Source: a virus
IMG/VR virus record: IMGVR_UViG_3300045988_100566
Length of the DNA: 48,924 nt
Reading direction: 5' to 3' (one strand)
Shown: piece after piece, positions 6,852 to 24,889 of the stretch
Numbering within the stretch: the first letter of the stretch is position 1
Layout of the letters: each line of letters begins with the position of its first letter
Notes under the pieces: generated by a model
The model's input: the letters and a program-made list of their open reading frames with translations, nothing else
The model's database searches: none
What the model was told of the DNA's origin: nothing
Position numbers and translations under genes: made by a program

Positions 6852-7211
6852 TTATTTCGCACCCCTTCTTTCATTCCTTTTTGAATACATAAACAAAGCA
6901 GCTTTTGCTAATACTTCATACATTGTTATTCCGCAAATTCTTACACCATAGTCAGTCAAGTCTTCTTCATTTACAATATACGCCGCCCATATGATACTCT
7001 TATCACTAGCCCACAAATCAGGCATAATACTTCTTACCCTCATCTTGTATTTCAAAGATAACTTCCATACAAGCTTTTCTACCTTTTCTAAAGGAATCTC
7101 TGCATCTTCTGAATAATTTGACAAAGGCTTTATTTTTCTTAAAGCTCTTTGAATACTTTCTTTGTTTTCTTTTACTCTACAATCTAAATTTATGATTTCT
7201 TTTATTGTCAT
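6852..7211 (-). CDS. Hypothetical protein
   Basis: Start moved to ATG 7211 (AAAGGTG 6 nt upstream). The track's TTG at 7229 lies inside the terminator stem. Confidence 0.55.
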   Translation of the reverse strand: MTIKEIINLDCRVKENKESIQRALRKIKPLSNYSEDAEIPLEKVEKLVWKLSLKYKMRVRSIMPDLWASDKSIIWAAYIVNEEDLTDYGVRICGITMYEVLAKAALFMYSKRNERRGAK

Positions 7212-7219
7212 GTTTTCAC

Positions 7220-7269
7220 CTTTAAACAAAAGGAGGCTACCAAACTTTATTCAGTTGGTAGCCTCCTTT
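7220..7269 (-). terminator. Rho-independent terminator
   Basis: 15-bp stem AAAGGAGGCUACCAA / UUGGUAGCCUCCUUU (7229-7243 and 7255-7269), 11-nt loop, then UUGUUUAAA. Confidence 0.8.
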
Positions 7270-7310
7270 GTTATCTCATATTATTCTGGAAAATTCATGT
7301 AGCCATTAAA

Positions 7311-7919
7311 TTAGATGTCCCAATCTTCGTCCTCATCTTCATCAGCTGCTTTTTTGTTTTCTTTCTTAGCAGGTTTCTTATCGGCTGCTTTAGCAGGCTT
7401 CTTTGCAGGTTTCTCTTCTTCCTCTTCACCCCAGTCATCGTCTGAATCTTCGGCAGCTTCCTCATCTGCTTTTTTTAACAGTCCGATGTAATACTTTGCC
7501 GGCTTCTTTAACTCAGCCTTGATGCCACGCTTCTTGCACTCCTTAAAGAGTTCCGGTGCAGTCATACTGGAATAATCAACTTCTCCTGCTTCATCATCGG
7601 CATCCTCTTCTGTTTCTTTCTTCTTTGCTGCAGGCTTCTGAGCTTTCTTAGCTGCTGGCTTTGTAGCTGCCTCTTCATCTGCATCACCGGAATCCTCCTC
7701 ACCGATTGCTTTCTTAATCATGCCGTTAACTTTGTTTGCTGAAACGTGCTCCGGAATATAACTTGCAAAATCATTGAACTGTTCTCCAGCTACTACTGCA
7801 AGCCCTGCAATCTTCACTGCCAGAACCGGGAATCTTCTTCCGATGTCTGTAATTGCTTCCATGTCTGTACCTTTAACGATAATATCGACTGCTTCAGATA
7901 ATGTGTAATTTCTTGCCAT
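7311..7919 (-). CDS. Lys/Ala-rich histone-H1-like DNA-binding protein with HeH (SAP/Rho_N-like) motif and acidic tail
   Basis: Start at MARNYTL (AAAGGAGAAAAAG RBS). Has KPAAKKAQKPAAKKK and AKKPAKAADKKPAKK repeats, MTAPELFKECKKRGIKAELKKPAKYYIGLL, and ends DEDEDEDWDI. Confidence 0.55.
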   Translation of the reverse strand: MARNYTLSEAVDIIVKGTDMEAITDIGRRFPVLAVKIAGLAVVAGEQFNDFASYIPEHVSANKVNGMIKKAIGEEDSGDADEEAATKPAAKKAQKPAAKKKETEEDADDEAGEVDYSSMTAPELFKECKKRGIKAELKKPAKYYIGLLKKADEEAAEDSDDDWGEEEEEKPAKKPAKAADKKPAKKENKKAADEDEDEDWDI

Positions 7920-7996
7920 AACTTTTTCTCCTTTTCTTTGTTTTGATTTTATTGTTGGCATTTGGTGTTATAAGTGTTATCGCCTCACTTGAAAAC

Positions 7997-9079: not shown

Positions 9080-9558
9080 AATGCACTTTTCCTTTCTTTC
9101 TTGTATCTTGCTTCATATGAACGTCTGAACACTTCTCTTGCACTTGCATCTGATTTGATATAGTTCTTTGTTGCCACTGTATTTGTTTCCTCATATCCTT
9201 CATCTAACTCAACCGAAAAGTGGCTTTTGTCAACCTTACCAGTTTCTAGATACTTAGAAGCATCTTCTAAATCTTGTGGTCTTATCAACAAAAATACCTC
9301 GTTGCTTTGTAAAAATTGTACTGCAAATACTGGCATTTTATGTTCAACCGCTGCATTGTGCAAAAGTTTATGAATATCAAGCAAGTTTATCTTTATACTT
9401 GAAGCATCTGTACTTTTGAGCTGGCATATAACATCATCAGATATACCATCTTCTTTTACAATCCAACCTGAACCAGAGTTTGGTGTAGGCTCAAGTCCTA
9501 ATTGCTTCATTACTTCAGCTTCATTACGTCGATAAAATCTTCCACTACGCTTCATCAT
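9076..9558 (-). CDS. PD-(D/E)xK nuclease, archaeal Hjc/RecU-like Holliday junction resolvase candidate
   Basis: G..YRRNEAEVMKQLG...SGSGWIVKEDGISDDVICQLKSTDASSIKI follows the GxxxE..(S)G..D..(E/Q)xK resolvase pattern. GAGGT RBS. Confidence 0.45.
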   Translation of the reverse strand: MMKRSGRFYRRNEAEVMKQLGLEPTPNSGSGWIVKEDGISDDVICQLKSTDASSIKINLLDIHKLLHNAAVEHKMPVFAVQFLQSNEVFLLIRPQDLEDASKYLETGKVDKSHFSVELDEGYEETNTVATKNYIKSDASAREVFRRSYEARYKKERKSAL

Positions 9559-9763
9559 TTTCTTTTACCTCATGGCATTCTTTAAAGTAGTTCAAATCAA
9601 TATATAAAACATTTTCCATAGGTATAACGAATACCCTTTCTTCTGTTGATTCTTTATATACCGATACTAAACCTTCTGAAGCTCTTACACTATGTTTTTT
9701 ATAATCAAAACAAGCTTCAATACCTGTCTTAAGAACTATCTTAATATATCTTATTTTCCTCAT
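9545..9763 (-). CDS. Hypothetical protein
   Basis: 72 aa ORF with a weak RBS. Fits the tight gene packing. Confidence 0.45.
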   Translation of the reverse strand: MRKIRYIKIVLKTGIEACFDYKKHSVRASEGLVSVYKESTEERVFVIPMENVLYIDLNYFKECHEVKENDEA

Positions 9764-9777
9764 TTTGCTTTATCTTT

Positions 9778-10107
9778 TCATTTCTTCATTTTCAATATAA
9801 ACATTGCCATGTTTAACAGATATTCTCTATCACTTTTTGTCAACCTGTGGAATAAATCGAAGCCTGTAGAACCATCAAAATCATACATGCAATAATAATA
9901 TTGTGTTTCTTTTAAAATCCCACCAGCTTCATTCTGCATATTCACAAGTTGCTTTGATATCTTATCATATTCTGCATCTGAGATAACGCTTTCGTTCAAC
10001 TCATAGTACATGATGGAGTATACAATCACTCTTCTTTGTAAGTAACTAATCTTAGTTGAATCACTCCAGTAAGCACTAGGCATTTTCTCGAAGTTTATTT
10101 CTTTCAT
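9778..10107 (-). CDS. Hypothetical protein with a LigA domain-Ia-like motif
   Basis: YSIMYYELNESVISDAEYDKISKQLVNMQ resembles the YYxxxxPxISDxEYDxLxxxL signature of NAD-dependent ligase domain Ia. AGGAG RBS. Confidence 0.4.
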   Translation of the reverse strand: MKEINFEKMPSAYWSDSTKISYLQRRVIVYSIMYYELNESVISDAEYDKISKQLVNMQNEAGGILKETQYYYCMYDFDGSTGFDLFHRLTKSDREYLLNMAMFILKMKK

Positions 10108-10339
10108 TTTTTATACTCCTATTTCGAATAATCCTTAAATCAGCTTTTGATTTAAGTTTTTCGTGAAGCCTGCATGATGCGCTCAAAGTCTTAGAAAGAA
10201 TCTTGTCATTACACTCATCACATATTGTAACTACGTTTCCACCAATACAAATATCATAGAGTTCTAAAGATTTCTCTCTATTATTTCCACATTCACAGCA
10301 AACAGCTTTATCATTTTTATTTATCCTCATCTTTACCAA
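10076..10339 (-). CDS. Hypothetical zinc-ribbon protein
   Basis: CCECGNN....ICDECNDK (two CxxC pairs). TTG start 9 nt after AAGGAG. Confidence 0.5.
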   Translation of the reverse strand: MVKMRINKNDKAVCCECGNNREKSLELYDICIGGNVVTICDECNDKILSKTLSASCRLHEKLKSKADLRIIRNRSIKNERNKLRENA

Positions 10340-10379
10340 TTTAGCTATCTCCTTTTGATTTTTACTTTATAGTGAAAGG

Positions 10380-10396
10380 GGCTGCTTTATGCAGCC
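10380..10396 (-). terminator. Weak hairpin overlapping the stop codon of the ATPase gene
   Basis: GGCUGC-AUAAA-GCAGCC followed by CCUUUCAC. The U tract is poor. Confidence 0.25.
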
Positions 10397-11481
10397 ACCT
10401 TTACTTTTCTTAACGCCTCGTGATAAATTGTATTTCCTTCAGGATTGAAAGTATTAATTGTGTCAGCATCCAATCCTTTCATTACAGCTATTTTGATGAT
10501 GATTTCCATATCCATTCCTGATTTCTCTAATTTTGAAACCATTGTCATACATCTATAGGAAAATGTAGCTCTGATTCCTTTTGCTTTTGCTTCGTCTCTC
10601 AACTGATGAATGAAACTTACAAGCTCTGAATTATTGCTTGTGATATTCATTTCAATGTTAAGACTATAATCAAATTCGATGATTGCGAATCTATCAAGTG
10701 TTGCCTGGTCTAAAACCATTCTTCCTGTGTACATCTCATCTGCACCTGAACCAACTGTATTGCCTGCTGCTACGAAGTGTACATGATTGAGATTTACCTT
10801 TCCATTTGGAAACTCAAAGTAACCATTTGCAATCGCTGCATTTAAAAGAACCAGAACTTCTGGGATTGAAGCATCCATCTCGTCTAAGAAAAAGATACAA
10901 TCCTTATCATCCTTGCAAGCTTTGTAAAATTCCGTCTCATGGAATTTACCACCTGCATCAATGAAACCTGTAAGTTTGTATTCTTGCTGAACACTATTGC
11001 TAAAGCAGAAGTTCCAACCAAGTTCATTTGCAATCTGCTCAACTGTGAAGTTTTTACCTGAACCAGCAGGACCTGCAAGGTAAACCGGAATGTTGCATTC
11101 CAGACAAGTTTTAATCTGATCGTATTTTTCATGTTTAACTGTACTATCATCTTCATCTTTTACTTCTGGAAGTTTTGGTTTTTCAACTTTTACCTTAGAG
11201 ACTTTCATCTCTTTCTTGATGTCATTTACAACACCTTTCGAAATATTACTTGAATCCGTTTTCTTAACACCTTTTGTTTCGTATACTCTTTCAACACTGA
11301 GTACTTTGAAGCTTTCATTGAAAGAAATCTTGCAACCATCAATGATCGTGTAATTATCATATGCTTTTCTAACATATGTGAAAACCTTTTCATTTCCGTT
11401 GAATTTGATTTCAACTACTACAAATCCTTCTTTTCTCTCAGCTGCCTTGATGTTTAATACTTTGAAATTTACTTTTGCCAT
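10387..11481 (-). CDS. AAA+ ATPase (AAA_5 / MoxR-CobS-like) with a roughly 120-aa unknown N-terminal domain
   Basis: Walker A LAGPAGSGKN, Walker B IFFLDEMD, sensor region AAGNTVG, arginine region TLDRFAII. Confidence 0.8.
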   Translation of the reverse strand: MAKVNFKVLNIKAAERKEGFVVVEIKFNGNEKVFTYVRKAYDNYTIIDGCKISFNESFKVLSVERVYETKGVKKTDSSNISKGVVNDIKKEMKVSKVKVEKPKLPEVKDEDDSTVKHEKYDQIKTCLECNIPVYLAGPAGSGKNFTVEQIANELGWNFCFSNSVQQEYKLTGFIDAGGKFHETEFYKACKDDKDCIFFLDEMDASIPEVLVLLNAAIANGYFEFPNGKVNLNHVHFVAAGNTVGSGADEMYTGRMVLDQATLDRFAIIEFDYSLNIEMNITSNNSELVSFIHQLRDEAKAKGIRATFSYRCMTMVSKLEKSGMDMEIIIKIAVMKGLDADTINTFNPEGNTIYHEALRKVKVAA

Positions 11482-11524
11482 TTTTATACCCTCCTAGGTG
11501 ATTTGTTTGTTTGATTATGATATT

Positions 11525-11553
11525 ATTATATACCAAAAAGCAAGATTTGTAAA
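11525..11553 (-). promoter_or_regulatory. Class-I promoter P4
   Basis: AAAAATATATTTACA-17 nt-TATAAT. -35 at 11548..11553, -10 at 11525..11530. Phased T tracts at 11558, 11569 and 11581. Confidence 0.75.
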
Positions 11554-11573
11554 TATATTTTTGAAAAGTTTTT

Positions 11574-11603
11574 GAAAAAGTTTTAGGGAGGATTTCTCCT
11601 CCC
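11574..11603 (-). terminator. Rho-independent terminator
   Basis: GGGAGGA-gaaa-UCCUCCC (11586-11603) followed by UAAAACUUUUUC, immediately after the stop at 11609. Confidence 0.7.
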
Positions 11604-11608
11604 AAGTT

Positions 11609-12418
11609 TTAAACGTTTGCCAAGTCATCAATCGTGTTTATTGTTGAAACATCTTTCTTTATGAAAGCTGGTAATAAGTACTCGCCAGATTCTTTAAACA
11701 AATTATATGCTTCATCATCGCTTACTGGTAAACCATAACCATTAACAAAACTTTTTGTAACTTTTGGATAAACCTCAATAAATCTGAGCATTAATCTTCT
11801 CAACATACTTGGATGAACTAATGGAAAGGCAAGTTTACTAATATTGAGTTTTTCACCAGCAGATTTGATTCTTATTTTTGTAATTAGTTTCAAATCTCTT
11901 TTAATTCCACCCATCATGACGTTGAGATTTACTCTGTAACCTTGTGCTTCAAGTTTTTTCACAATCATCATTGCTTTAACTGATTCTTCAACAATCCGTT
12001 CAGCTTTAATACTACAATTATAACTGATTGACTTATTCAACGTTATTACCTTCTGCTTTACTGGAACCATTTTTCTATTTACCATGTTTGTTGGTACACC
12101 ACTCAAGTATAACGGAACGATTGGCTGAAAACCTGCAACTGAATTTATTGTTTTCGGTTTCATAGTTGGTTGAACTTGATTCTTAACTACATTTAATCTT
12201 TGTGTTAACTTACTAGACATATCAGTCCAACCATTCTTAAGAAGATCTGTTGCTTCTTCAAAGCTTCTTGTTTGTGTAAAACTATAATTATCACTTACAC
12301 TTTCATGTTTAGCCCATCTGAACGATTCATTAAATGGTGTATCACAGATATACTTGTAAAACTCATTTAAACTGTCATACTCAACTACTTCATAACCTTT
12401 AATGTTTTCTACTTTCAT
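11609..12418 (-). CDS. Hypothetical protein (own promoter and terminator; upstream partner of the AAA+ ATPase)
   Basis: 269 aa. AGAGGAGG RBS after the conserved class-I leader. No motif recognised. Confidence 0.65.
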   Translation of the reverse strand: MKVENIKGYEVVEYDSLNEFYKYICDTPFNESFRWAKHESVSDNYSFTQTRSFEEATDLLKNGWTDMSSKLTQRLNVVKNQVQPTMKPKTINSVAGFQPIVPLYLSGVPTNMVNRKMVPVKQKVITLNKSISYNCSIKAERIVEESVKAMMIVKKLEAQGYRVNLNVMMGGIKRDLKLITKIRIKSAGEKLNISKLAFPLVHPSMLRRLMLRFIEVYPKVTKSFVNGYGLPVSDDEAYNLFKESGEYLLPAFIKKDVSTINTIDDLANV

Positions 12419-12470
12419 TTTAAAACCTCCTCTAAGGAATATTTGTATTTGTTTGTGTTTTGATAATACT

Positions 12471-12499
12471 ATTATAACATATGTATTATGATTTGTAAA
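12471..12499 (-). promoter_or_regulatory. Class-I promoter P5
   Basis: AAAAAAACTATTTACA-17 nt-TATAAT. -35 at 12494..12499, -10 at 12471..12476. Confidence 0.75.
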
Positions 12500-12565
12500 T
12501 AGTTTTTTTAGTTTTGTTTTATATATATTTTTTCTTTTTCTTTTGCTACTTTTCTTTTTCTTTTT

Positions 12566-12775
12566 TCAATCAATAGTTTTCTTTTTGAATGACTTTGATA
12601 TATTGTAGTCACCTAAGAATCTGCCTTTTGGAATAGGTTTATGAAATTCATCAAATTTCTTTTTCTCTCTGAGTTCTGCTGTATGTTTTTCTTTTGCTTT
12701 GTTGTATTTTTCACAGTTTGCATGACAACCTAAAATTCTGTCTTTGCAGCTTTTGCAGCAATTTATACCCAACAT
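12566..12775 (-). CDS. Hypothetical Cys-rich small protein
   Basis: 69 aa, N-terminal CCKSCKDRILGCHANC cluster, basic C-terminus. Confidence 0.5.
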   Translation of the reverse strand: MLGINCCKSCKDRILGCHANCEKYNKAKEKHTAELREKKKFDEFHKPIPKGRFLGDYNISKSFKKKTID

Positions 12776-12783
12776 ACCTACAT

Positions 12784-13389
12784 TTACCTCTCTTCTTGAA
12801 GCAATTTTCTGTCACCTAAAAAGCCATACATAGCTATACCAGCACTGTCTGAAGCATCATTATTATACATATACTTTTGCCCATTTACCATAAAAGTACC
12901 TTTCGTTTTCCTTGTCTGGATTGGTATCAAGATACTTTTCTCAAAACCTTGTCTAATACACCATTCCACTGTTGGCCACTTCTCATCTGGAACACCAAAA
13001 TTATTGCTTTTGGGCTTACTTGTACCTATTATCTGGGCTTTCCATGCCCTAGTATCTACACTATATACTGGCACATTATATTTCTTACAAACATCGACAA
13101 TGGTAGCATTTAAAGCACCTATGGATTTTATATAGTCAATATTTAAAAATCCACCAGAACGTAGTCTGATTCTTTCTATTATGCATTCTACTTCGTCTGA
13201 ATGCGTTTTCATGCTACTTAAACATGATTCTAATTTTAGCATTATTTTTTGTCTTCTATCACTATTGCAATGACATTTTTCTAGATGTATGCTTGATACT
13301 TTTTTAAGCTTACCATCTGCAGCAATGCTAATTCCAGTATTCTTATAAGACTGGTCTAAGCCTATTACTATTTTGTTGTATTTACTCAT
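12784..13389 (-). CDS. ruvC: RuvC-like Holliday junction resolvase
   Basis: IVIGLDQSYKNTGISI (first Asp), IIERIRL (Glu), NDASDSAGIAMYG (C-terminal acidic pair). RNase H-like fold pattern. Confidence 0.6.
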   Translation of the reverse strand: MSKYNKIVIGLDQSYKNTGISIAADGKLKKVSSIHLEKCHCNSDRRQKIMLKLESCLSSMKTHSDEVECIIERIRLRSGGFLNIDYIKSIGALNATIVDVCKKYNVPVYSVDTRAWKAQIIGTSKPKSNNFGVPDEKWPTVEWCIRQGFEKSILIPIQTRKTKGTFMVNGQKYMYNNDASDSAGIAMYGFLGDRKLLQEER

Positions 13390-14381: not shown

Positions 14382-14731
14382 CTTGATTCCTCTTTTAACC
14401 TTTCCATTTCTTTTGCAGAAATACCTACAATACCAACTGATTGATCTGAATCTGTATGCTTGAAGTATTCTCCATTCTGCGGGTACATATACCTGAACAT
14501 GGCATAGTTAGCAATGTCAAGCAAATATTCTGTGTTCTTCGTTTCCTCAAATTTCTCCAGGCATTTTTTAAGTGTTGCAATAGCATCTACGTTTCCTGTA
14601 GCAAAGTTTTTTCTCACTGAACCATATTTATAAAAGCTTACGCATATTAAATCTTTTCTTCTTTTGTCAAACTCTTCTGAGTACTCCGTCTTGAGAATCT
14701 CATCTACTATGCTTTCCGATTTGTTTATCAT
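14369..14731 (-). CDS. Hypothetical protein (possibly an all-alpha MazG-like NTP pyrophosphohydrolase fold)
   Basis: Start at MINKSES, ATGA-coupled to the deaminase stop. The FYKYG...KFEETKNTEYLLDIANYAMF pattern is only weakly reminiscent of the fold. Confidence 0.3.
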   Translation of the reverse strand: MINKSESIVDEILKTEYSEEFDKRRKDLICVSFYKYGSVRKNFATGNVDAIATLKKCLEKFEETKNTEYLLDIANYAMFRYMYPQNGEYFKHTDSDQSVGIVGISAKEMERLKEESRWDW

Positions 14732-15168
14732 AAAAATATCTTTCCCCCTTTTGTTATAACTCTTTTTATGCCCGCATTCTTTATCATCCTTAAACATATA
14801 GGGCATGGCGAACAATCTTTAACCTCAATGTATATATCTGACGTCCTCATCACTTTTTCTTCACAAGCTAAATACATTGTAGCTCCCAACATATCTTTTC
14901 TGCTGGCTGACAGCATAGCGTTCTGTTCAGCATGAACCGACTGACAATCTGAATAATCACCTGAGTTGTGTGCTACATTTGCCCTTGGGCATTCTTTATA
15001 AATATCACAACAATTTTTTTCCCCTCTTGCTGAACCATTGTAACCCGTTGCAATAATTTCATCATTTTTTACAATTACACAGCCATATCTTCTTTTCAGA
15101 CATGTACTTCTTTTTGTCACCGCTTTGGCAATCCCAAGATAATATTCATCTTTGCTTATTCTATTCAT
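14728..15168 (-). CDS. dCMP deaminase (ComEB/T4 cd type)
   Basis: TCLKRRYGCVIV, HAEQNAM, CSPCPICLRMI zinc motifs. The start lies among three ATGs after GGAGG (15168 preferred). Confidence 0.85.
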   Translation of the reverse strand: MNRISKDEYYLGIAKAVTKRSTCLKRRYGCVIVKNDEIIATGYNGSARGEKNCCDIYKECPRANVAHNSGDYSDCQSVHAEQNAMLSASRKDMLGATMYLACEEKVMRTSDIYIEVKDCSPCPICLRMIKNAGIKRVITKGGKIFL

Positions 15169-16108
15169 CATCATCCTCCAGAAAATCTTTAGGAACGCGC
15201 TTACCAAACTGTTCAGCTCTTTTCTTCATTATTTCTTTTCTAATAGCGTTTACATCTGCATAATTTACAAAACCCCTGTCAAAGAACAAAGGAATCTCGC
15301 ATTCACCCATAGGATTGCTTACTTTTGATTTGACAACTTTACATTTCATAATCAATCCAATCTTTTCTGTAGCAGCTGAGTTCCTTGGGTCTTTATTTGG
15401 AATCTCAATCCACGCTCTTCTTGCTACTTGAATCCTAAGACTACAAGCATGCTTTAACTTCCTTCCGCCTGGAGTATCAGTCTTTTCACCAAACATCATA
15501 GCGTTCATTTTGTCCCTTACTTGGTTGACAAAAATTAACGTCGTGCCTGTCACTTCTATAATCTCTTCTATCGTTGGCAGATATTTGTTCATAAGCCTTG
15601 CAGTTCCACCTATTCTCTGCTCCTCGATAGAATCTTTCTCAGCCGACTTAAGAACTTTTTCTGCATCCTCTTTTGGAACCATACTTGGAACACTATCAAT
15701 GCCAATCAAAGGAATACCAGCTTTTGAAAACTTAATCGTTTTGTTGAAAGCATCTTCTCCATACTTTGCTCTATATATCAGTAACTGCTTTGGCCTATTG
15801 CCAAACACCTTTGCTCTTTCTGCATCAAACGTACCTTCAATAGGAATGTCAAGAGCTATATTATGAAGTCCACAAAGATGATATAACAAAGTTGTTTTAC
15901 CCGAACTTTCTGGACCAAATATTTCTACAACTCTTCCTTCAGGCATTCCTCCTCCAATGATTGCATCTAAATCCTCAATACCTGTGCTCCATCTTTTGAT
16001 GTTCAAGTCAGCGTGTTTGCTGCCTATCGAATAAATAGCACCTTCTCCTTCTTTTTTGTTGATGTCATTACACAGAGCAATAATTGCTGCTTTGTTTGTT
16101 TTAGCCAT
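15161..16108 (-). CDS. recA: RecA-family recombinase
   Basis: DAIIGGGMPEGRVVEIFGPESSGKTTL (Walker A), IGIDSV (Walker B), PGGRKLKHACSLRIQVARR. Confidence 0.85.
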   Translation of the reverse strand: MAKTNKAAIIALCNDINKKEGEGAIYSIGSKHADLNIKRWSTGIEDLDAIIGGGMPEGRVVEIFGPESSGKTTLLYHLCGLHNIALDIPIEGTFDAERAKVFGNRPKQLLIYRAKYGEDAFNKTIKFSKAGIPLIGIDSVPSMVPKEDAEKVLKSAEKDSIEEQRIGGTARLMNKYLPTIEEIIEVTGTTLIFVNQVRDKMNAMMFGEKTDTPGGRKLKHACSLRIQVARRAWIEIPNKDPRNSAATEKIGLIMKCKVVKSKVSNPMGECEIPLFFDRGFVNYADVNAIRKEIMKKRAEQFGKRVPKDFLEDDDE

Positions 16109-19425: not shown

Positions 19426-20121
19426 TTATTCACCTATATTTTTGAGATATTTTTCGTAGTCCCTTTTATAAAGATGCAGAGAACCTGCTATGTGTGTATA
19501 TGTTCCAAGTTCTAAGCCTAACTCCATAGACAACAAAACTTGTAAACATGTGAACTGAAACACATCATACGGAAATCCCATCCATAAATCATTTGACCTC
19601 ATATATGTTGTCATATACAACTTTCCTTCTCTAACGAAAAACTGCAAACATACTGTGCAATTCAAATCCTTCGTTGGATTCTCCAACGTATTTCTTGGTT
19701 CCTTGATGTGAATCACGGCTTGTCTTGTTTGACTGTCTTTCATAAGCAAATCTTTCACATACTTATACTGATCGAACCCGTACTTCTTTTTGATACACCA
19801 GCCATAATTGCTGTTTACTGTTTCTCCGTCATCAGACATTCTTTCCCAAGCTGAAGTATATTTACTTATCTCTTTTACATCATTATTTGCCGATAAGTAC
19901 CAGAGCATTTCTCCTATAGCATATCTCATAGAAAGTTTTCTTGTCGTATTAGTCATTATATTTTTTGTGGGATTTTCTATTACTGTCACAGCATTCAATA
20001 CTTCATTTACAACTTCGCCATCTCTGCTTTCCGATTCTTTAATTTCTTTTGTCATGATGTCGTACCATTTAAGCCATGCATCATCTGTACTTCTACTCTT
20101 AACAACTAAGTTTTCCAGCAT
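19426..20121 (-). CDS. ThyA-fold pyrimidine C5-transferase with Asp at the specificity position (dCMP hydroxymethylase/methylase-like)
   Basis: Start at MLENL (AAAGGAGAAAAA RBS). Aligns without gaps to ThyA: LNCTVCLQFFV vs APCHAFFQFYV (catalytic Cys155) and YMRSNDLWMGFPYDVFQF vs YQRSCDVFLGLPFNIASY. Asp186 (19564-19566) replaces the Asn. Confidence 0.7.
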   Translation of the reverse strand: MLENLVVKSRSTDDAWLKWYDIMTKEIKESESRDGEVVNEVLNAVTVIENPTKNIMTNTTRKLSMRYAIGEMLWYLSANNDVKEISKYTSAWERMSDDGETVNSNYGWCIKKKYGFDQYKYVKDLLMKDSQTRQAVIHIKEPRNTLENPTKDLNCTVCLQFFVREGKLYMTTYMRSNDLWMGFPYDVFQFTCLQVLLSMELGLELGTYTHIAGSLHLYKRDYEKYLKNIGE

Positions 20122-20132
20122 TTTTTCTCCTT

Positions 20133-21248
20133 TTATTTTAAAATATTTTCCAATTCTTTCTCTACACAATCTGCAATCGTATCAGCTTTCAGCTTTTCCA
20201 TATCTTTCTTCATTGTTTCAAAGCCGATTTTTGAACCAGACAAAATCATGCTTCTGAGTTTGACATACATTTCTTCCACATTATGGCAATAGCCATAATA
20301 GTCATCTGAGAATATCTCCGCATATCCAAACTTTTTAGGAAGTAAGCATTTTACTCCATAACATGCACAATCTGTAGTTGAAGAACACCACATACCTTCT
20401 GAATCAAAAAATGTATTCAAATGAATACCTACTTCTTTTGACTTTAAGAAGTTAACATAAGTTTCAGTATCAGACAATTCTACTTTTTTAAAGTATGGCT
20501 TGTCTTTTTCTACATCAAAATCTTTCCCGGAAGGATTTGTAAAATATACTGTTGGCATATTTTCTAAGCCTAAGTCGTCCTCTAACATATCCATTACTCT
20601 TACTAAGTTGTTATACGCACTTTTGTAATATACATCTGAAGAAAGCCTGTGGTTGTAGATTATGTTCATTCCAACATCAGCCTTTAAGTCCATAATCTCT
20701 TCATTCGCTGTTGGATAGAACACTCTTACATTATTTGTATTATAACCTAACTTCTTCATTTTGTAAATCACAAAATTTGAATTTACAAAACATAAATCGG
20801 CATTTTCTATACCTTCTCTCTGTCTGTATTCCAAAAACTTCATGTTGTCCGCTGCAAGCCAATGTATGTAAGTAACTACTTTTGATTCTTTGAATATATT
20901 CTTCAATGGAAGAACTTTGCTTGGTTCATTTACGAAAATAATGTCATACTTTTCGTTGTTGTTTTTGATTTCCATAAATCGACTTGAATCAAAATCAAAC
21001 CTTTCATTGAATGCACCTGCAAATTCTCTTTTTGTATTTCTAAATACAACTCCATCAAAATTTTTCCAGAAATCATTGTCAAGATCTTCGTACTTCATAT
21101 TAAACTCGAAGCAAACGTCTACTTCGTTTCTCTTAAACATTTGTGTACTGAGGAGTTTTCTTAAGAAAGTAATATTACTATCCTTGTTAAGTAATACTTT
21201 CCCATCTGACGACATACAACTTATCTGAGGAATCCACAAAATTCTCAT
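20133..21248 (-). CDS. GT-B-fold (GT1/GT4-like) glycosyltransferase candidate
   Basis: 371 aa. MRILWIPQ N-terminal Rossmann start, DIIFVNEP, ADLCFVNSNF, NIIYNHRL, and C-terminal DSEGMWCSSTTDCACYGVKCLLPKKFGYAEIF resembling EgfG..lEAmaxGxPvi. TAATG overlap with the radical SAM gene. Confidence 0.5.
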   Translation of the reverse strand: MRILWIPQISCMSSDGKVLLNKDSNITFLRKLLSTQMFKRNEVDVCFEFNMKYEDLDNDFWKNFDGVVFRNTKREFAGAFNERFDFDSSRFMEIKNNNEKYDIIFVNEPSKVLPLKNIFKESKVVTYIHWLAADNMKFLEYRQREGIENADLCFVNSNFVIYKMKKLGYNTNNVRVFYPTANEEIMDLKADVGMNIIYNHRLSSDVYYKSAYNNLVRVMDMLEDDLGLENMPTVYFTNPSGKDFDVEKDKPYFKKVELSDTETYVNFLKSKEVGIHLNTFFDSEGMWCSSTTDCACYGVKCLLPKKFGYAEIFSDDYYGYCHNVEEMYVKLRSMILSGSKIGFETMKKDMEKLKADTIADCVEKELENILK

Positions 21249-22186
21249 TACAAATACCTCCTTTCAGACTTTTTAACATTTTCAAAATCTGAATTAAATT
21301 TCACATATCTATCGCAGTTCTTACAAAAACTATAAAGCTTGTTTTCGTCATCAATTCCATCAAGGTTTTCAACCCTGAATTTTCCTTCCCAATCACAACC
21401 GTTATCATTTGTCGCTCTGCAACATGGGTACTCTGTACCATTCTGATCTATGACTCTATGTACTGCTTTAACATAACATTTTCCAGCAAAAGGTTTTCTT
21501 TTTTCAAACTCAAAACTTTCAACGTTTGTATCCGCTACCTTTTCACCCCTTGCTTTCAAAGTGTTTGATACTTCTGTAATATCAATCATCTGACTCTTTA
21601 CCGAATCAAACATTTCTTTTTTAAGAAATACATCTTCATTGGTGTGCACGGGAAAGAATCTTATTCCTACTACATTATCAAATTTGCAAAACTTCATAAA
21701 CACGTTGAATACATCTGTATAATTCTTAACTGATACCGTCATATTCAGTTTTACTTTAGTTTTAAGACTTCTTATGTTTTCTATCAGTCTTTTATATCTG
21801 CTCACATAGTTCTTTTCTAAACCAGAATACCTTATGCTAGCGTACATTTCTGGTGTACTTCCATCCATACTTGCTTGAACAAATTCTGCTCTTTCTAAGA
21901 ACTCTCTTATATGATTTTGTGATAAATCATAGTCAAGATTCGTAAACACCTGATACTTTAAATCTTTCTTTTCTTTAAGCAGCTCATTGAGTTTTGACAG
22001 TTTAGAATAACTCAATGGATCGCCACCTGAAAAAGTAAAAGTACAGTTTGGATTCTCTTCATAGAATTTGTTTATCTTTTCCTTCAGTAAATCAAAATCT
22101 ATCTCTCTGTGATTCCATGTATACTGTCTGCACATGTAGCATCTCTGGCTGCATCTTGTCGTTAAATCAAACTGAACACTAATCAT
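21248..22186 (-). CDS. Radical SAM enzyme with a Cys-rich (SPASM/twitch-like) C-terminal region
   Basis: CSQRCYMC = CX3CX2C. FSGGDPL (SAM glycine motif). C-terminal cysteines KCY...PCC...GCD...FCKNC. Confidence 0.8.
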   Translation of the reverse strand: MISVQFDLTTRCSQRCYMCRQYTWNHREIDFDLLKEKINKFYEENPNCTFTFSGGDPLSYSKLSKLNELLKEKKDLKYQVFTNLDYDLSQNHIREFLERAEFVQASMDGSTPEMYASIRYSGLEKNYVSRYKRLIENIRSLKTKVKLNMTVSVKNYTDVFNVFMKFCKFDNVVGIRFFPVHTNEDVFLKKEMFDSVKSQMIDITEVSNTLKARGEKVADTNVESFEFEKRKPFAGKCYVKAVHRVIDQNGTEYPCCRATNDNGCDWEGKFRVENLDGIDDENKLYSFCKNCDRYVKFNSDFENVKKSERRYL

Positions 22187-22720: not shown

Positions 22721-22752
22721 AAAATCTTAAAAAGGGAGCTTAGAAAGCTCCC
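22721..22752 (-). terminator. Rho-independent terminator
   Basis: GGGAGCU-uucua-AGCUCCC (22734-22752) followed by UUUUUAAGAUUUU. Confidence 0.75.
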
Positions 22753-22757
22753 ATTGT

Positions 22758-23117
22758 TTATCGCTTGCTTTCTATTCTTTCTTTAACTACTTCGATTTTG
22801 TTTGAAATAGTTTCTACAAGTTCTTCTGAACTAATTCCAGAAAACATAGCTATATTCATAAGCACAATAAAACAATCAGCAATTTCTTCAGCTTTTCCTG
22901 CTTTATCATACTTTTCATTTCTGAAGTTCTTCCACCTTTTATCTGCATCAAGAACTTCACCTACTTCAGACATAAGCTGAAGGGTGTGGTATGAAGCTAA
23001 CTGAACGTTATCAATTGGCAACCCAGATACTAACTTCACATCATACAAGCCTTTATCCAGCATTTTCTGCTGATTTGTTTTTTGTGCTTCATACAAATCA
23101 GAAAAAGACTTATTCAT
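22758..23117 (-). CDS. MazG-like all-alpha NTP pyrophosphohydrolase
   Basis: Start at the ATGATG after GGGAGG (23117 or 23120). LQLMSEVGEVLDA...EEIADCFIVLMNIA = ExxE...ExxD metal motifs. Confidence 0.65.
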   Translation of the reverse strand: MNKSFSDLYEAQKTNQQKMLDKGLYDVKLVSGLPIDNVQLASYHTLQLMSEVGEVLDADKRWKNFRNEKYDKAGKAEEIADCFIVLMNIAMFSGISSEELVETISNKIEVVKERIESKR

Positions 23118-23931
23118 CATCTTCCTCCCAATCTTCTTCATCATCATACTCATCATCTTCATCCCAATCTTCCTGGGCTTTATCATATTCTTCAAGAAGA
23201 TTGATGTAGTACTTCTTAGGCTTCCTTGGCACAGCTTCAATCTTACGTTTTTTACATTCCTTAAACAATTCCTGAGGTGTCATGGAATCATAATCGTTTC
23301 CATCTTCATCCCAATCTTCTTCATCTTCAGGGTCTTCCTGCTTCTTTGACTTTGATGAAGTTTTTGATGCAGGCTTTCTTTTTGGCTTTTCCTCATAGTC
23401 TTCTTCATCTTCAGCATCTTCACACGGGAAAGCTTTATCCAGCATTTTGAGTATTGCCTTTTCTGCAAAAGGCTTTGCCTTCTTATTTCTGAATTTAACT
23501 TTGTCCATAGGTACTACTGAGAAAGTTTTATTCTGCTGCTTACCTGAAACACTGATAACGTAGTCTCTATCAGTAAGTGTTCCATAGTTCTCATACATAG
23601 CCATAAGAGCGGGAATCGGTGAGCAGTTGTTAACCGGGAACATGAACAGCTGTACCTCTTTTGTTTCATAATTCCAGACAGACCAAATGTATTGAGATCT
23701 CGTTCTGATTCCTTCCTCTTCACAGTAAGGACAATTCCTTCCAAACGTTTCTTCCTGACACGGCACGTTGATGCCGGCTTCAAAGCTGTCATGAAAAGTC
23801 ACTTTCATTCCGTCGTCCATATCATTAAGAAATCTTACTCTCTGCTTTGTACCTTCTCTGAAGTAAATGAATTTCCCTTTGTTCTGTCCTGACTTTTTAA
23901 CGTCGTTTTTGATGTCATCTAATAAACCCAT
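23110..23931 (-). CDS. gp32-like zinc-containing ssDNA-binding protein with C-terminal HeH motif and acidic tail
   Basis: Start at MGLLDD (AGGAGG RBS). FHDSFEAGINVPCQEETFGRNCPYC = H..C..CxxC as in T4 gp32. MTPQELFKECKKRKIEAVPRKPKKYYINLL. Ends EEDWEEDDE. Confidence 0.55.
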   Translation of the reverse strand: MGLLDDIKNDVKKSGQNKGKFIYFREGTKQRVRFLNDMDDGMKVTFHDSFEAGINVPCQEETFGRNCPYCEEEGIRTRSQYIWSVWNYETKEVQLFMFPVNNCSPIPALMAMYENYGTLTDRDYVISVSGKQQNKTFSVVPMDKVKFRNKKAKPFAEKAILKMLDKAFPCEDAEDEEDYEEKPKRKPASKTSSKSKKQEDPEDEEDWDEDGNDYDSMTPQELFKECKKRKIEAVPRKPKKYYINLLEEYDKAQEDWDEDDEYDDEEDWEEDDE

Positions 23932-24889
23932 TTTTATTCCTCCTGAAATCAATCATTGTCTTCTTATACATTTTATCAAAGAGCTGTTGTGTCATTTCTC
24001 CTGGGTCCTTTATACCTTTAAGATACCTAAACCTAACTACATTGAAATGCTCCTTTAAGAATGCTGTTCCTCTTTTCCCACATGGGTCATTGTCTAATGC
24101 ACTTATTATTGTGTTGACACCTTTATCTTTCAGCTTCTTAATTTGCTCACTTGACATCTTCCATCCAAGTATTGCTGCTACATTGCTCTCACCAAATTGT
24201 AAGAACTTTAGTCTGTCCATATATCCTTCTACGATGAAAACATAAGGCTTTAAACCATAACTTCCAACCAACGTTTCAGCTCTTCTAAACCCTTTGTTGT
24301 ACAGGTATTTCCTTTTCTTTTCAATGTCTTTATCGGTTGTTCTACATACCCAACCTTTGAACTTTCCATTGTCAATCATAGGAAACACTATGCTGTAGTT
24401 TTTGTTGTATGTTATCTTAGCTCTGCATTTATTCAACGCTTCCGCATCAAAACCTCTGTTGCTCATATACTTATAAGCTTCAATCTCTTCTGGTTCTTCT
24501 AGATTCCCCCAGTCAGTCTTTTTCAAACCATAATAAAAATCATAAGCTTGATTATATAACTCTCTTCTGACTGGCTTTCGTGACTTCCGATGAGTACTTA
24601 TCTTTATACTGCTGCATTTATCAGACTTAAGAATATCCAAGTAAACTTTATATGATTGTAAATCATCCAAACCGTTGTGCTTGCTTTCCATAAGTTTTAC
24701 AAATTTGTAAGCATCACCTGACAAACCACATCCAAAACAAAACCATGAACCTTCTTCAAGATTTATTATCATACTTGGATTTACATCTTCATGAAAAGGA
24801 CAAACAATTTTTTGCTTTTCAACACCTGTTTCGTATAATAAGTTGTAATACCAAAGTACCTTTGCTAAATTAAGTCCTTTACTTTCAAT
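23915..24889 (-). CDS. dnaG: DnaG-type primase (CHC2 zinc finger + TOPRIM); start codon unresolved
   Basis: CPFHEDVNPSMIINLEEGSWFCFGCG zinc finger, TOPRIM IVEGYMD and ALDNDPCG. CPFH (24791-24802) is upstream of the first ATG (24772). The frame is open to 24916 with no ATG/GTG/TTG. The upper bound given is an in-frame ATT at 24889. Confidence 0.75.
   Translation of the reverse strand: MESKGLNLAKVLWYYNLLYETGVEKQKIVCPFHEDVNPSMIINLEEGSWFCFGCGLSGDAYKFVKLMESKHNGLDDLQSYKVYLDILKSDKCSSIKISTHRKSRKPVRRELYNQAYDFYYGLKKTDWGNLEEPEEIEAYKYMSNRGFDAEALNKCRAKITYNKNYSIVFPMIDNGKFKGWVCRTTDKDIEKKRKYLYNKGFRRAETLVGSYGLKPYVFIVEGYMDRLKFLQFGESNVAAILGWKMSSEQIKKLKDKGVNTIISALDNDPCGKRGTAFLKEHFNVVRFRYLKGIKDPGEMTQQLFDKMYKKTMIDFRRNKNGFIR

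Follow-up and report, generated by a model that had tools for sequence, protein, structure and literature searches.

A twitch-type radical SAM family paired with a GT-B glycosyltransferase in phages, and its possible part in cytosine hypermodification

Introduction

What might a radical SAM (S-adenosylmethionine) enzyme be doing beside a glycosyltransferase and a base-modifying enzyme in a phage genome? The question is raised by a 48,924-nucleotide stretch of viral DNA, IMG/VR record IMGVR_UViG_3300045988_100566 (the whole of which is called the window below), in which the gene for a radical SAM protein shares one base with the gene for a glycosyltransferase (GT), and this in turn is followed by a thymidylate synthase (TS) homologue. 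An initial annotation, made from the letters of the sequence, had drawn attention to the pair and suggested chemistry on a DNA-linked sugar or, alternatively, directly on the base. The reading preferred here is that the two genes form a radical SAM/glycosyltransferase module within a T4-style pathway of cytosine hypermodification, leading to glycosylated 5-hydroxymethylcytosine (glycosyl-5hmC), and that the radical SAM enzyme tailors the sugar; the chances that this is correct are judged to be about even.

Phage DNA hypermodifications decide cutting by restriction enzymes, CRISPR nucleases, and modification-dependent defences, and the enzymes that make them serve in epigenetic sequencing and DNA labelling. 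The phage glycosyl-cytosine pathway is itself known, and to our knowledge all the phage cytosine sugar modifications described are made by simple group transfer. A full-text literature search, of incomplete coverage, found no paper in which a radical SAM enzyme takes part in DNA hypermodification of the cytosine or glycosyl kind; the sole precedent is an isomerase of phage M6 resembling spore photoproduct lyase (SPL), which acts on thymidine-linked glycine (PMC8989533). What is new here is an uncharacterised family of twitch-type radical SAM proteins, together with a new family of GT-B glycosyltransferases.

Results and Discussion

Motifs and distribution of the radical SAM protein

Both open reading frames (ORFs) are present on the minus strand where the initial annotation had placed them (Table 1), and the two motifs it had singled out, CSQRCYMC and FSGGDPL, can be read in the translation of the radical SAM gene, the N-terminus of which is MISVQFDLTTRCSQRCYMC. 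The first of these is the CX3CX2C motif, which binds the SAM-cleaving [4Fe-4S] cluster; since it starts at residue 12, there is no N-terminal peptide-recognition domain. In an alignment of 29 family members, C19 is invariant, and C12 and C16 are at least 90% conserved, being missing from one N-terminally truncated sequence. FSGGDPL occupies residues 52-58, including the GGE-like SAM-binding motif SGGDP at 53-57, with G54, G55, and P57 invariant.

The cysteine-rich tail had been credited with seven further cysteines and a likeness to SPASM/twitch domains. Six cysteines were counted (C237, C255, C256, C267, C288, and C291), of which C267, in the sequence GCD, is unconserved; among the 29 aligned members, C237, C288, and C291 are invariant, as is G250, and C255 and C256 are at least 90% conserved. 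The likeness is borne out for the twitch form. The SPASM motif has been given as CX9-15GX4C-gap-CX2CX5CX3C-gap-C, with the first half defining the one-cluster twitch form, and in BtrN the four such cysteines ligate the auxiliary cluster fully (PMC6231123). The tail of the window protein, C-x12-G-x4-C...C-x2-C, corresponds to this first half. The CX5CX3C of a full seven-cysteine SPASM domain is absent after C291, where 21 residues remain, and the Pfam SPASM model (PF13186) has no match in the window protein, being seen only in one relative (P0004) and in sister groups. A single twitch cluster is predicted, which is probably fully ligated by cysteine. The twitch pattern is kept, along with "NDNG" and a C-terminal "DRY...FL," in all of the subfamilies reached by profile search.

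The family as a whole is small and all of it is metagenomic: 29 and later about 42 core clusters were found among 5.8e9 proteins, and 43 clusters (E<=1e-30) among 1.84e9 representatives at 50% identity. A scan of 185,579 species genomes gave one match, on a 6.7-kb contig binned in a Clostridia metagenome-assembled genome from yak colon, and a tblastn search of 50,697 GenBank phage records gave none. Both the radical SAM and the GT protein have dozens of full-length homologues, at 40-60% identity; taken with the Pfam score, the confident structure models, and the recurring gene overlap, this puts the pair beyond chance. The calculated isoelectric points (pI) of the radical SAM family range from 5.2 to 8.7, and are uninformative as a proxy for DNA binding. 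The window protein is taken as the founding member of an uncharacterised twitch-type family.

Fold and family assignment

The AlphaFold (AF2) model of the radical SAM protein (pLDDT 91.9) consists of alternating beta and alpha elements, with a beta-hairpin (243-246/252-253) between the first two tail cysteines. By Foldseek comparison with the PDB, radical SAM structures are matched at probability 1.00, with viperin, SkfB, GDGT-MAS, MoaA, CteB, DesII, anSME, and BlsE tied at E ~1e-9 to 1e-10 and 13-22% identity; the best TM-score, 0.68, is to BlsE. With a dozen radical SAM families tied at E ~1e-9, no specific family is therefore assignable. Of the enzymes proposed for this comparison in the initial annotation, DesII, anSME, and MoaA were matched, at the level of the superfamily, and BtrN was absent from the top 50. 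A PDB sequence-profile search is consistent with these results, and includes an almost full-length alignment to a viperin-like enzyme; the viral matches found by Foldseek in BFVD are unannotated "Fe-S oxidoreductase/SPASM" proteins. The protein sits in the viperin/MoaA/SPASM-twitch region of the superfamily, as a family of its own.

Named NCBIfam families all fall far under their cut-offs. The best is prokaryotic viperin (NF038283), at 2.6e-13 and 49.8 bits against a cut-off of 180; ScmE reaches 47.7 bits against 400, and HxsB, StsB, and similar models are likewise far below theirs. Identity as a viperin (pVip) was rejected both on this score and on the five conserved tail cysteines in the twitch motif. 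NrdG was rejected at 18.8-24.1 bits against cut-offs of 126-152, with no NrdD or PFL in the window, and QueE at 23.1 bits against 260, with no QueC, QueD, or FolE in the window; these were the unrelated families that the initial annotation had thought worth excluding, and their models (19-24 bits, cut-offs 126-260) give no such assignment. A SPASM/twitch maturase of peptides made on the ribosome and modified after translation (RiPPs) was also rejected: there is no N-terminal domain, the models are below cut-off, and the neighbours are nucleotide and replication genes.

Of the PADLOC pVip models, that for "viperins not associated with kinases" matches the protein at 1.9e-17 (61.6 bits) and that for "viperins associated with kinases" at 7.8e-15 (53.1 bits), in each case over residues ~2-200, the common core; the "viperin-kinase fusion" model is touched as well by a sister protein (P0095). 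A pipeline for defence annotation would accordingly call the phage radical SAM gene a viperin. "Annotated viperins (pVip)" have been reported to co-occur in phage GT/ThyS clusters as defence-type genes (bioRxiv 10.1101/2023.12.21.572611); these may be radical SAM genes of the present kind, not defence genes.

The overlapping GT-B gene

The glycosyltransferase label of the initial annotation is confirmed by fold (BshA, MshA, and PimA; E ~1e-11, TM ~0.7), not by sequence models: the protein has no match in Pfam, PHROGs, NCBIfam, or a PDB sequence-profile search, and a single homologue (P0033) has a precomputed match to PF13439. Its AF2 model (pLDDT 92.1) matches two-Rossmann GT-B/GT4 structures by Foldseek at E 1e-11 to 1e-8 and TM 0.63-0.71, among them BshA (3mbo; 1.2e-11), MshA (3c4q), PimA (2gej), glycogen synthase, and WaaG-type or lipopolysaccharide glycosyltransferases. 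The matched enzymes are retaining glycosyltransferases. The T4 alpha- and beta-GT structures are not among the top 50 PDB matches. The family has an E284-x7-D/E292 pattern (D292 in the window protein), tentatively equated with the GT4 EX7E motif by eye only, and an invariant E311 in "FGYAE." It comprises some 50 clusters and has no match among the GenBank phages; in several homologues, the C-terminus bears a cupin akin to the phosphomannose-isomerase domain of GMP/PMI enzymes. Activity as a 5hmC-DNA glycosyltransferase is predicted for this protein from its gene context, by analogy with published systems.

The stop/start overlap TAATG at 21248, noted initially, is real and also conserved: overlaps of 1 or 4 nt are found in 15 of 16 related loci, and again in a locus with a divergent pair (L028, below). 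Its interpretation as evidence of "stoichiometric co-expression" was an over-reading, the GT having a strong Shine-Dalgarno sequence of its own (Table 1). Translational coupling of the two genes is plausible.

A cytosine-type thymidylate synthase homologue

The base-modifying enzyme that the initial annotation saw beside the pair is real, a TS homologue (Table 1). Its best PDB sequence match is the CMP 5-hydroxymethylase MilA (5.9e-27), with T4 dCMP hydroxymethylase and true thymidylate synthases scoring much lower. It has the equivalent of the catalytic C146, and Asp at the positions of L143 and N177 in E. coli ThyA, aligned with the Asp residues of MilA; the Asp/Asp pair and the catalytic Cys are kept in every full-length TS homologue of the related loci. 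Asp at both positions marks cytosine-nucleotide enzymes that add a group other than methyl, namely T4 gp42, MilA, and the 5-hydroxy-dCMP synthases (PMC13326640). Judging from this signature, the modified base is most likely cytosine. Hydroxymethyluracil (hmU), which is hinted at by the dCMP deaminase of the window and by the annotation of the related phage AB434P2, was rejected as the modified base, the Asp/Asp signature favouring cytosine. Function as a 5-hydroxy-dCMP synthase is the less likely alternative for the TS homologue, since these enzymes need O2 and flavin (PMC13326640), while the nearest cultured relative of the window phage infects the anaerobe Agathobaculum. The true start of the gene is probably the ATG at 20121, which is preceded by GGAG and fits the 231-aa homologues.

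Conservation and variation among related loci

Twenty-seven further loci (given L numbers here) were fetched, and their gene order was read by hidden Markov model (HMM)/phmmer scan; 17 loci make up the core family. Gut, rumen, and digester metagenomes are the source of the loci. The order primase, SSB-like (single-stranded DNA-binding) protein, MazG, kinase, radical SAM, GT, zero to two further genes, TS homologue, and DNA polymerase III (Pol III) alpha is found in 16 of the 17. In each of the three loci that were reached from the GT side, the radical SAM gene is directly upstream. L028 (468-3458) contains a member of a divergent radical SAM subfamily (P0129) and then, with a 4-nt overlap, a GT homologue of 24% identity (hhalign 99.9%, E 9.5e-32); directly upstream of this pair, with the genes again overlapping, is a 267-aa protein of the uracil-DNA glycosylase (UDG) superfamily. 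The pairing of radical SAM and GT genes goes deeper than a shared phage backbone.

The interval between the GT and the TS homologue is occupied in several of the relatives. In L002 (12054-14899), it holds an HddA-like GHMP kinase and a three-domain HddC/GmhB/GmhA fusion, a two-gene insert which, by its domain content, is a complete pathway to NDP-D-glycero-D-manno-heptose. In L003, L005, L006, and L016-L020 it holds an HldC-like nucleotidyltransferase of ~150 aa. Between the TS homologue and Pol III alpha, L016 (10207-11142), and also L017 and L018, have an extra 311-aa protein with the sequence "FLDDDIL" (DDD), which has no family match and is a candidate for a second glycosyltransferase, of GT-A-like type.

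The cultured Agathobaculum phage AB434P2 (L001, OP172633.1) has the same replication backbone, without the radical SAM and GT genes. Its slot (9491-13222) contains a 366-aa HAD+APH/choline-kinase-like protein, a 151-aa cytidylyltransferase-like protein, and a 328-aa protein of no named family, and bears comparison with the published three-gene heptosyl-5hmC cassette. Because AB434P2 carries another cassette there, the slot can be considered to hold a swappable hypermodification cassette, of which radical SAM plus GT is one version. The TS homologue of AB434P2 is annotated as "deoxyuridylate hydroxymethyltransferase," yet it bears the Asp/Asp cytosine-type signature, and for this reason the annotation is probably wrong.

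A side observation on more distant relatives concerns L010 (1-15185), where a bacterial glycan cluster includes a third-tier radical SAM/SPASM protein besides GmhA, HldE, an epimerase, three methyltransferases, a split transketolase, GT11, and UDP-glucose dehydrogenase, an arrangement that points to radical chemistry in cells too, on heptose or another sugar. In L023-L025 (5400-7762; viral contigs of 57-62 kb), there are two tandem, overlapping, distantly related radical SAM genes, encoding proteins of ~400 and 390 aa whose match to the family profile is confined to its N-terminal core.

A proposed pathway, and alternatives to it

The domain identities, motifs, and folds, the conserved order and pairing of the genes, and the cytosine-type signature of the TS homologue are as described above. 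From these we infer a pathway in which DNA would be the acceptor and a sugar the radical SAM substrate, and for which the identity of the sugar, the order of steps, and the type of reaction can be suggested. A MazG-like pyrophosphatase and a dCMP deaminase would reshape the dCTP pool, and the TS homologue would make 5-hydroxymethyl-dCMP; this would be phosphorylated by the thymidylate kinase (TMPK)-like enzyme, and the product built into DNA by the phage Pol III alpha. The GT4-like GT-B enzyme would move a sugar from a nucleotide sugar onto the 5-CH2OH in DNA, the donor being presumably of heptose type in the relatives with NDP-heptose genes, and supplied by the host in the window phage. The radical SAM enzyme would cleave SAM at its CX3CX2C cluster and abstract hydrogen from a sugar carbon, with the twitch cluster moving the electron. 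The net effect would be a tailoring of the redox type, either dehydrogenation or dehydration, with epimerisation or decarboxylation less likely; it might take place on the nucleotide-sugar donor just before transfer, or on a sugar that the DNA already bears.

Radical tailoring of the sugar is judged the most likely role because the radical SAM gene is locked to the GT gene in divergent lineages, because sugar-nucleotide genes have been recruited beside the pair, because the structural neighbours include enzymes using nucleotides and nucleotide sugars, because the twitch motif has cysteines enough for full ligation, and because the radical SAM protein has no peptide-binding domain. Fully ligated auxiliary clusters, as in BtrN and anSME, have been proposed to oxidise radical intermediates (PMC6231123).

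Several points weigh against sugar tailoring. The results would accommodate any of a DNA-linked sugar, a nucleotide-sugar donor, and the base or nucleotide as substrate of the radical SAM enzyme, and the Foldseek and HMM likenesses are at superfamily level, so that "sugar-tailoring" is no family assignment. No sugar-nucleotide genes were found in the window. The calculated pI of the GT family is mostly 5-6.5, acidic and thus unexpected for a DNA-binding enzyme, and a 5-hydroxy-dCMP synthase would carry the same Asp/Asp signature as the TS homologue. Known glycosyl-5hmC pathways, the heptose one included, need no radical SAM enzyme (bioRxiv 10.1101/2023.12.21.572611), which makes the radical SAM step an addition to them. 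Nor is the radical SAM gene strictly tied to the GT family. In L009 (5615-7966), a kinase-radical SAM fusion (P0091, 494 aa) is followed by an unrelated 281-aa protein (7121-7963), of a family here designated Y, and in L008 (1-1556) and L027 (3-1470), which represent another phage type (PrimPol, SNF2), the order is Y, sister radical SAM, kinase, and TS. The members of family Y (partial in L008 and L027) are mutually homologous (E 2e-20), share the motifs HQxPxxKxP, YSYVPELF, and GWVTSRxVE, and have no match in Pfam, PHROG, the PDB, or GenBank phages. A relationship of Y to the GT family was rejected by hhalign; a likeness to the C-terminal motif of GT-B enzymes was judged by eye only, and no claim is made for it.

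The exchange of GT for Y in L008, L027, and L009 means that the radical SAM gene is more widely linked to the TS homologue and kinase than to the GT, which would suit an enzyme acting on the base. The modified cytosine, as part of DNA or as the free nucleotide, could have a hydrogen abstracted from its 5-hydroxymethyl or 5-methylene group, to give either an aldehyde from the CH2OH, by an anaerobic reaction like those of anSME and BtrN, or a new C-C or C-O bond; the product would create or lock a structure then used by the transferase, whether GT or Y. The existence of a kinase-radical SAM fusion is in keeping with this, the UDG-superfamily protein upstream of the radical SAM gene in L028 hints at base-directed chemistry, M6 gp53, the sole known radical SAM enzyme in phage DNA hypermodification, acts at a C5 substituent in DNA (PMC8989533), and enzymes of the anSME type draw on auxiliary clusters in oxidising a primary alcohol or thiol (PMC6231123). 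A C5 aldehyde, however, would remove the hydroxyl that the glycosyltransferase requires, and the TS homologue already supplies a usable acceptor, as in T4 and the published glycosyl-5hmC clusters. The adjacency of the kinase is explained by the insertion of the cassette between two backbone genes, AB434P2 having the kinase without the radical SAM gene, and there is no sequence relation to SPL or to the M6 gp53 type, with SPL not among the top PDB matches. Action on the base is considered unlikely, if by no means far-fetched. The viperin matches raise a different possibility, that a viperin-derived enzyme and the nucleoside monophosphate (NMP) kinase act on a cytidine-type NTP to make a nucleotide analogue, for incorporation or for use against host or competitor polymerases, with the GT a mere neighbour. 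Prokaryotic viperin is indeed the best NCBIfam match (2.6e-13), PADLOC pVip models match at 1.9e-17 and 7.8e-15 (the sister protein P0095 touching the fusion model as well), CTP-bound viperins are among the top PDB sequence and Foldseek matches, with a viperin-like alignment of near full length, and a link or fusion to kinases of the TMPK/CMPK2 family is common among viperins (bioRxiv 10.1101/2023.09.13.557418), the kinase here being adjacent and once fused. Yet 49.8 bits is far from the cut-off of 180, and the PADLOC matches are confined to the common core; viperins are without an auxiliary cluster, whereas the twitch cysteines are the most conserved feature of the present family. By making a 3'-deoxy chain terminator, the phage would poison its own replication, and retention of the GT overlap across divergent subfamilies argues for functional coupling, so that a viperin-like role seems improbable.

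That the protein is a radical SAM enzyme with a housekeeping or accessory task outside DNA modification, such as NrdG, QueE, a RiPP/SPASM maturase, or another protein maturase, can hardly be credited. There are weak PHROG and NCBIfam matches to NrdG, QueE, and SPASM maturases, but the scores are 21.9-24.1 bits against 126-152 for NrdG, 23.1 against 260 for QueE, and 47.7 against 400 for ScmE. Moreover, NrdD, PFL, QueC, QueD, FolE, and DpdA are all missing from the window genes, as are any obvious precursor peptide and any RiPP recognition element (RRE) domain, and in every locus the radical SAM gene has a fixed place inside the nucleotide-modification block.

Comparison with known systems

The closest described systems are the glycosyl-5hmC clusters of phages: T4 gp42, gp1, and gp56 with the alpha- and beta-GT, and the metavirome ThyS/5mYOX clusters with GT-A or GT-B enzymes, among them the "contig 53" cluster for heptosyl-5hmC. 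Heptosyl- and other glycosyl-5hmC are made by phage GT-B enzymes encoded beside ThyS genes (bioRxiv 10.1101/2023.12.21.572611). Like these, the window has a TS-homologue hydroxymethylase, a dNMP kinase, an NTP pyrophosphatase, a dCMP deaminase, and a GT-B protein clustered with replication genes, and relatives of the window phage carry heptose-nucleotide genes. Unlike them, it includes a radical SAM enzyme, which is present in none of the described clusters; and its GT, which is like the GT4 enzymes of cells, comes from a sequence family without a match in GenBank phages.

Pseudomonas phage M6 gp53 is similarly a phage radical SAM protein in a pyrimidine hypermodification cluster, beside a P-loop kinase, but it is a relative of spore photoproduct lyase, has glycinyl-thymidine as its substrate, and has aGPT-Pplase and pyridoxal phosphate (PLP) enzymes as partners (PMC8989533). 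The window enzyme by contrast falls in the viperin/MoaA/SPASM-twitch region, and has an auxiliary-cluster motif, a GT partner, and a place in a cytosine pathway. With BtrN, MoaA, BlsE, and DesII it shares a partial TIM barrel, followed by the beta-hairpin and C-x(n)-G-x4-C...C-x2-C, and with BtrN in particular the availability of four cysteines for one cluster. Identity to these is however only 13-22%, no curated family model matches at threshold, and the vicinal C255-C256, "NDNG," and "CDRY...FL" are particular to the window family. Viperin/pVip has the closest radical SAM core of any named family, and as in viperin systems there is an adjacent, once fused, TMPK-like kinase; the viperin substrate is a cytidine nucleotide. 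The differences are the cysteine-rich twitch tail, the location of the phage gene inside a DNA-modification block, and its coupling to a GT.

The pathways for the nucleoside antibiotics mildiomycin and blasticidin S use MilA (TS-like), MilC/BlsD (glycosyl transfer to cytosine), and MilG/BlsE (radical SAM). The same three enzyme types occur together in the window, MilA being the best PDB match of the TS homologue, and BlsE having the top TM-score for the radical SAM protein. By E-value, BlsE does not stand out from a dozen other radical SAM enzymes; the window genes, unlike those of the antibiotic pathways, are embedded among phage replication and dNTP-pool genes, and no CMP-hydrolase (MilB/BlsM-type) gene was detected.

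Genomic setting and neighbouring genes

All genes of the 48.9-kb window are on the minus strand. Since they include terminase, portal, capsid, tape-measure, and Dit/Gp37 tail genes as well as a replication block, the window is taken to be an almost complete siphovirus genome; and since the related phage AB434P2 infects an anaerobe, Agathobaculum, the host is probably an anaerobic gut bacterium of Clostridia type. In the direction of transcription, the block reads primase, SSB-like 280-aa protein, MazG-like protein, hairpin, TMPK-like kinase, radical SAM, GT, TS homologue, Pol III alpha, RecA, and dCMP deaminase (Table 1).

Table 1. Coordinates of the features discussed, within the window.
Feature	Position	Strand	Basis or remarks
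dCMP deaminase, nucleotide-pool module	14728..15207	-	PF00383 2e-19; PHROG 174 2.1e-45
Thymidylate synthase homologue, with cytosine-nucleotide hydroxymethylase signature	19426..20169	-	Pfam 3.6e-29; MilA match
Glycosyltransferase, GT-B fold, GT4-like, 371 aa, new sequence family	20133..21248	-	AF2 and Foldseek
TAATG stop/start overlap, radical SAM TAA and GT ATG sharing one base	21246..21250	-	CATTA on plus strand
AGGAGG Shine-Dalgarno of GT, inside 3' end of radical SAM gene	21257..21262	-	8 nt upstream of ATG
Radical SAM enzyme, 312 aa	21248..22186	-	Pfam PF04055 9e-11, 42.7 bits vs. cut-off 29.5
Twitch-type auxiliary-cluster region, C237-x12-G250-x4-C255/C256 ... C288-x2-C291	21314..21478	-	Alignment
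CX3CX2C codons, C12-x3-C16-x2-C19 (CSQRCYMC)	22130..22153	-	Read from translation
TMPK-like P-loop (d)NMP kinase, 161 aa	22214..22699	-	PHROG 761 5.6e-13; sub-threshold Thymidylate_kin and dTMP kinase
Terminator-like hairpin between MazG-like gene and kinase	22734..22752	-	Consensus scan only
MazG/dimeric-dUTPase-like NTP pyrophosphatase, candidate dCTPase	22758..23240	-	PF08761 6.2e-5; PF03819 2e-4; PHROG 173

The kinase gene has weak tblastn matches to phage "thymidylate kinase" genes, and in every core locus it immediately precedes the radical SAM gene. The position of the MazG-like gene is likewise conserved across related loci; its ORF is probably shorter than called, as it overlaps the upstream gene by 131 nt and the homologues are of ~120-125 aa. 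The hairpin between the two has a perfect 8-bp GC-rich stem, with TTTTT after it on the minus strand. A kinase-radical SAM-GT-TS-Pol III unit may begin here, and the hairpin could separate transcription into the block or attenuate it.

Three further observations concern genes in or near the replication block, or related to it. The SSB-like 280-aa protein (23110-23952) has a distant paralogue (E 3e-16) of 216 aa elsewhere in the window (7311-7961). A protein with an OGG_N domain is encoded near the replication block in L005 (15877-16785), and a Pyr_excise protein, like T4 endonuclease V, in L007 (14079-14543).

Implications

The wider proposal is that a phage-specific twitch radical SAM family and a dedicated GT-B enzyme carry out oxygen-independent radical chemistry on sugar-decorated cytosine, or on the nucleotide-sugar donor, to give a glycosyl-cytosine of a new type; this is put forward tentatively, its likelihood falling a little short of even. 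It would give a function to a protein family that annotation tools would call viperin, and bears on how "pVip" matches in phage genomes should be read. If it is true, a new modified nucleoside is predicted, for example one with a keto-, deoxy-, decarboxylated, or cross-linked sugar on 5hmC, which would be detectable directly by mass spectrometry. Cytosine or glycan DNA hypermodification would then have its first radical SAM enzyme, a viperin-like scaffold would have been turned to phage counter-defence, and radical sugar chemistry would join the cytosine-modifying repertoire in phages of anaerobes.

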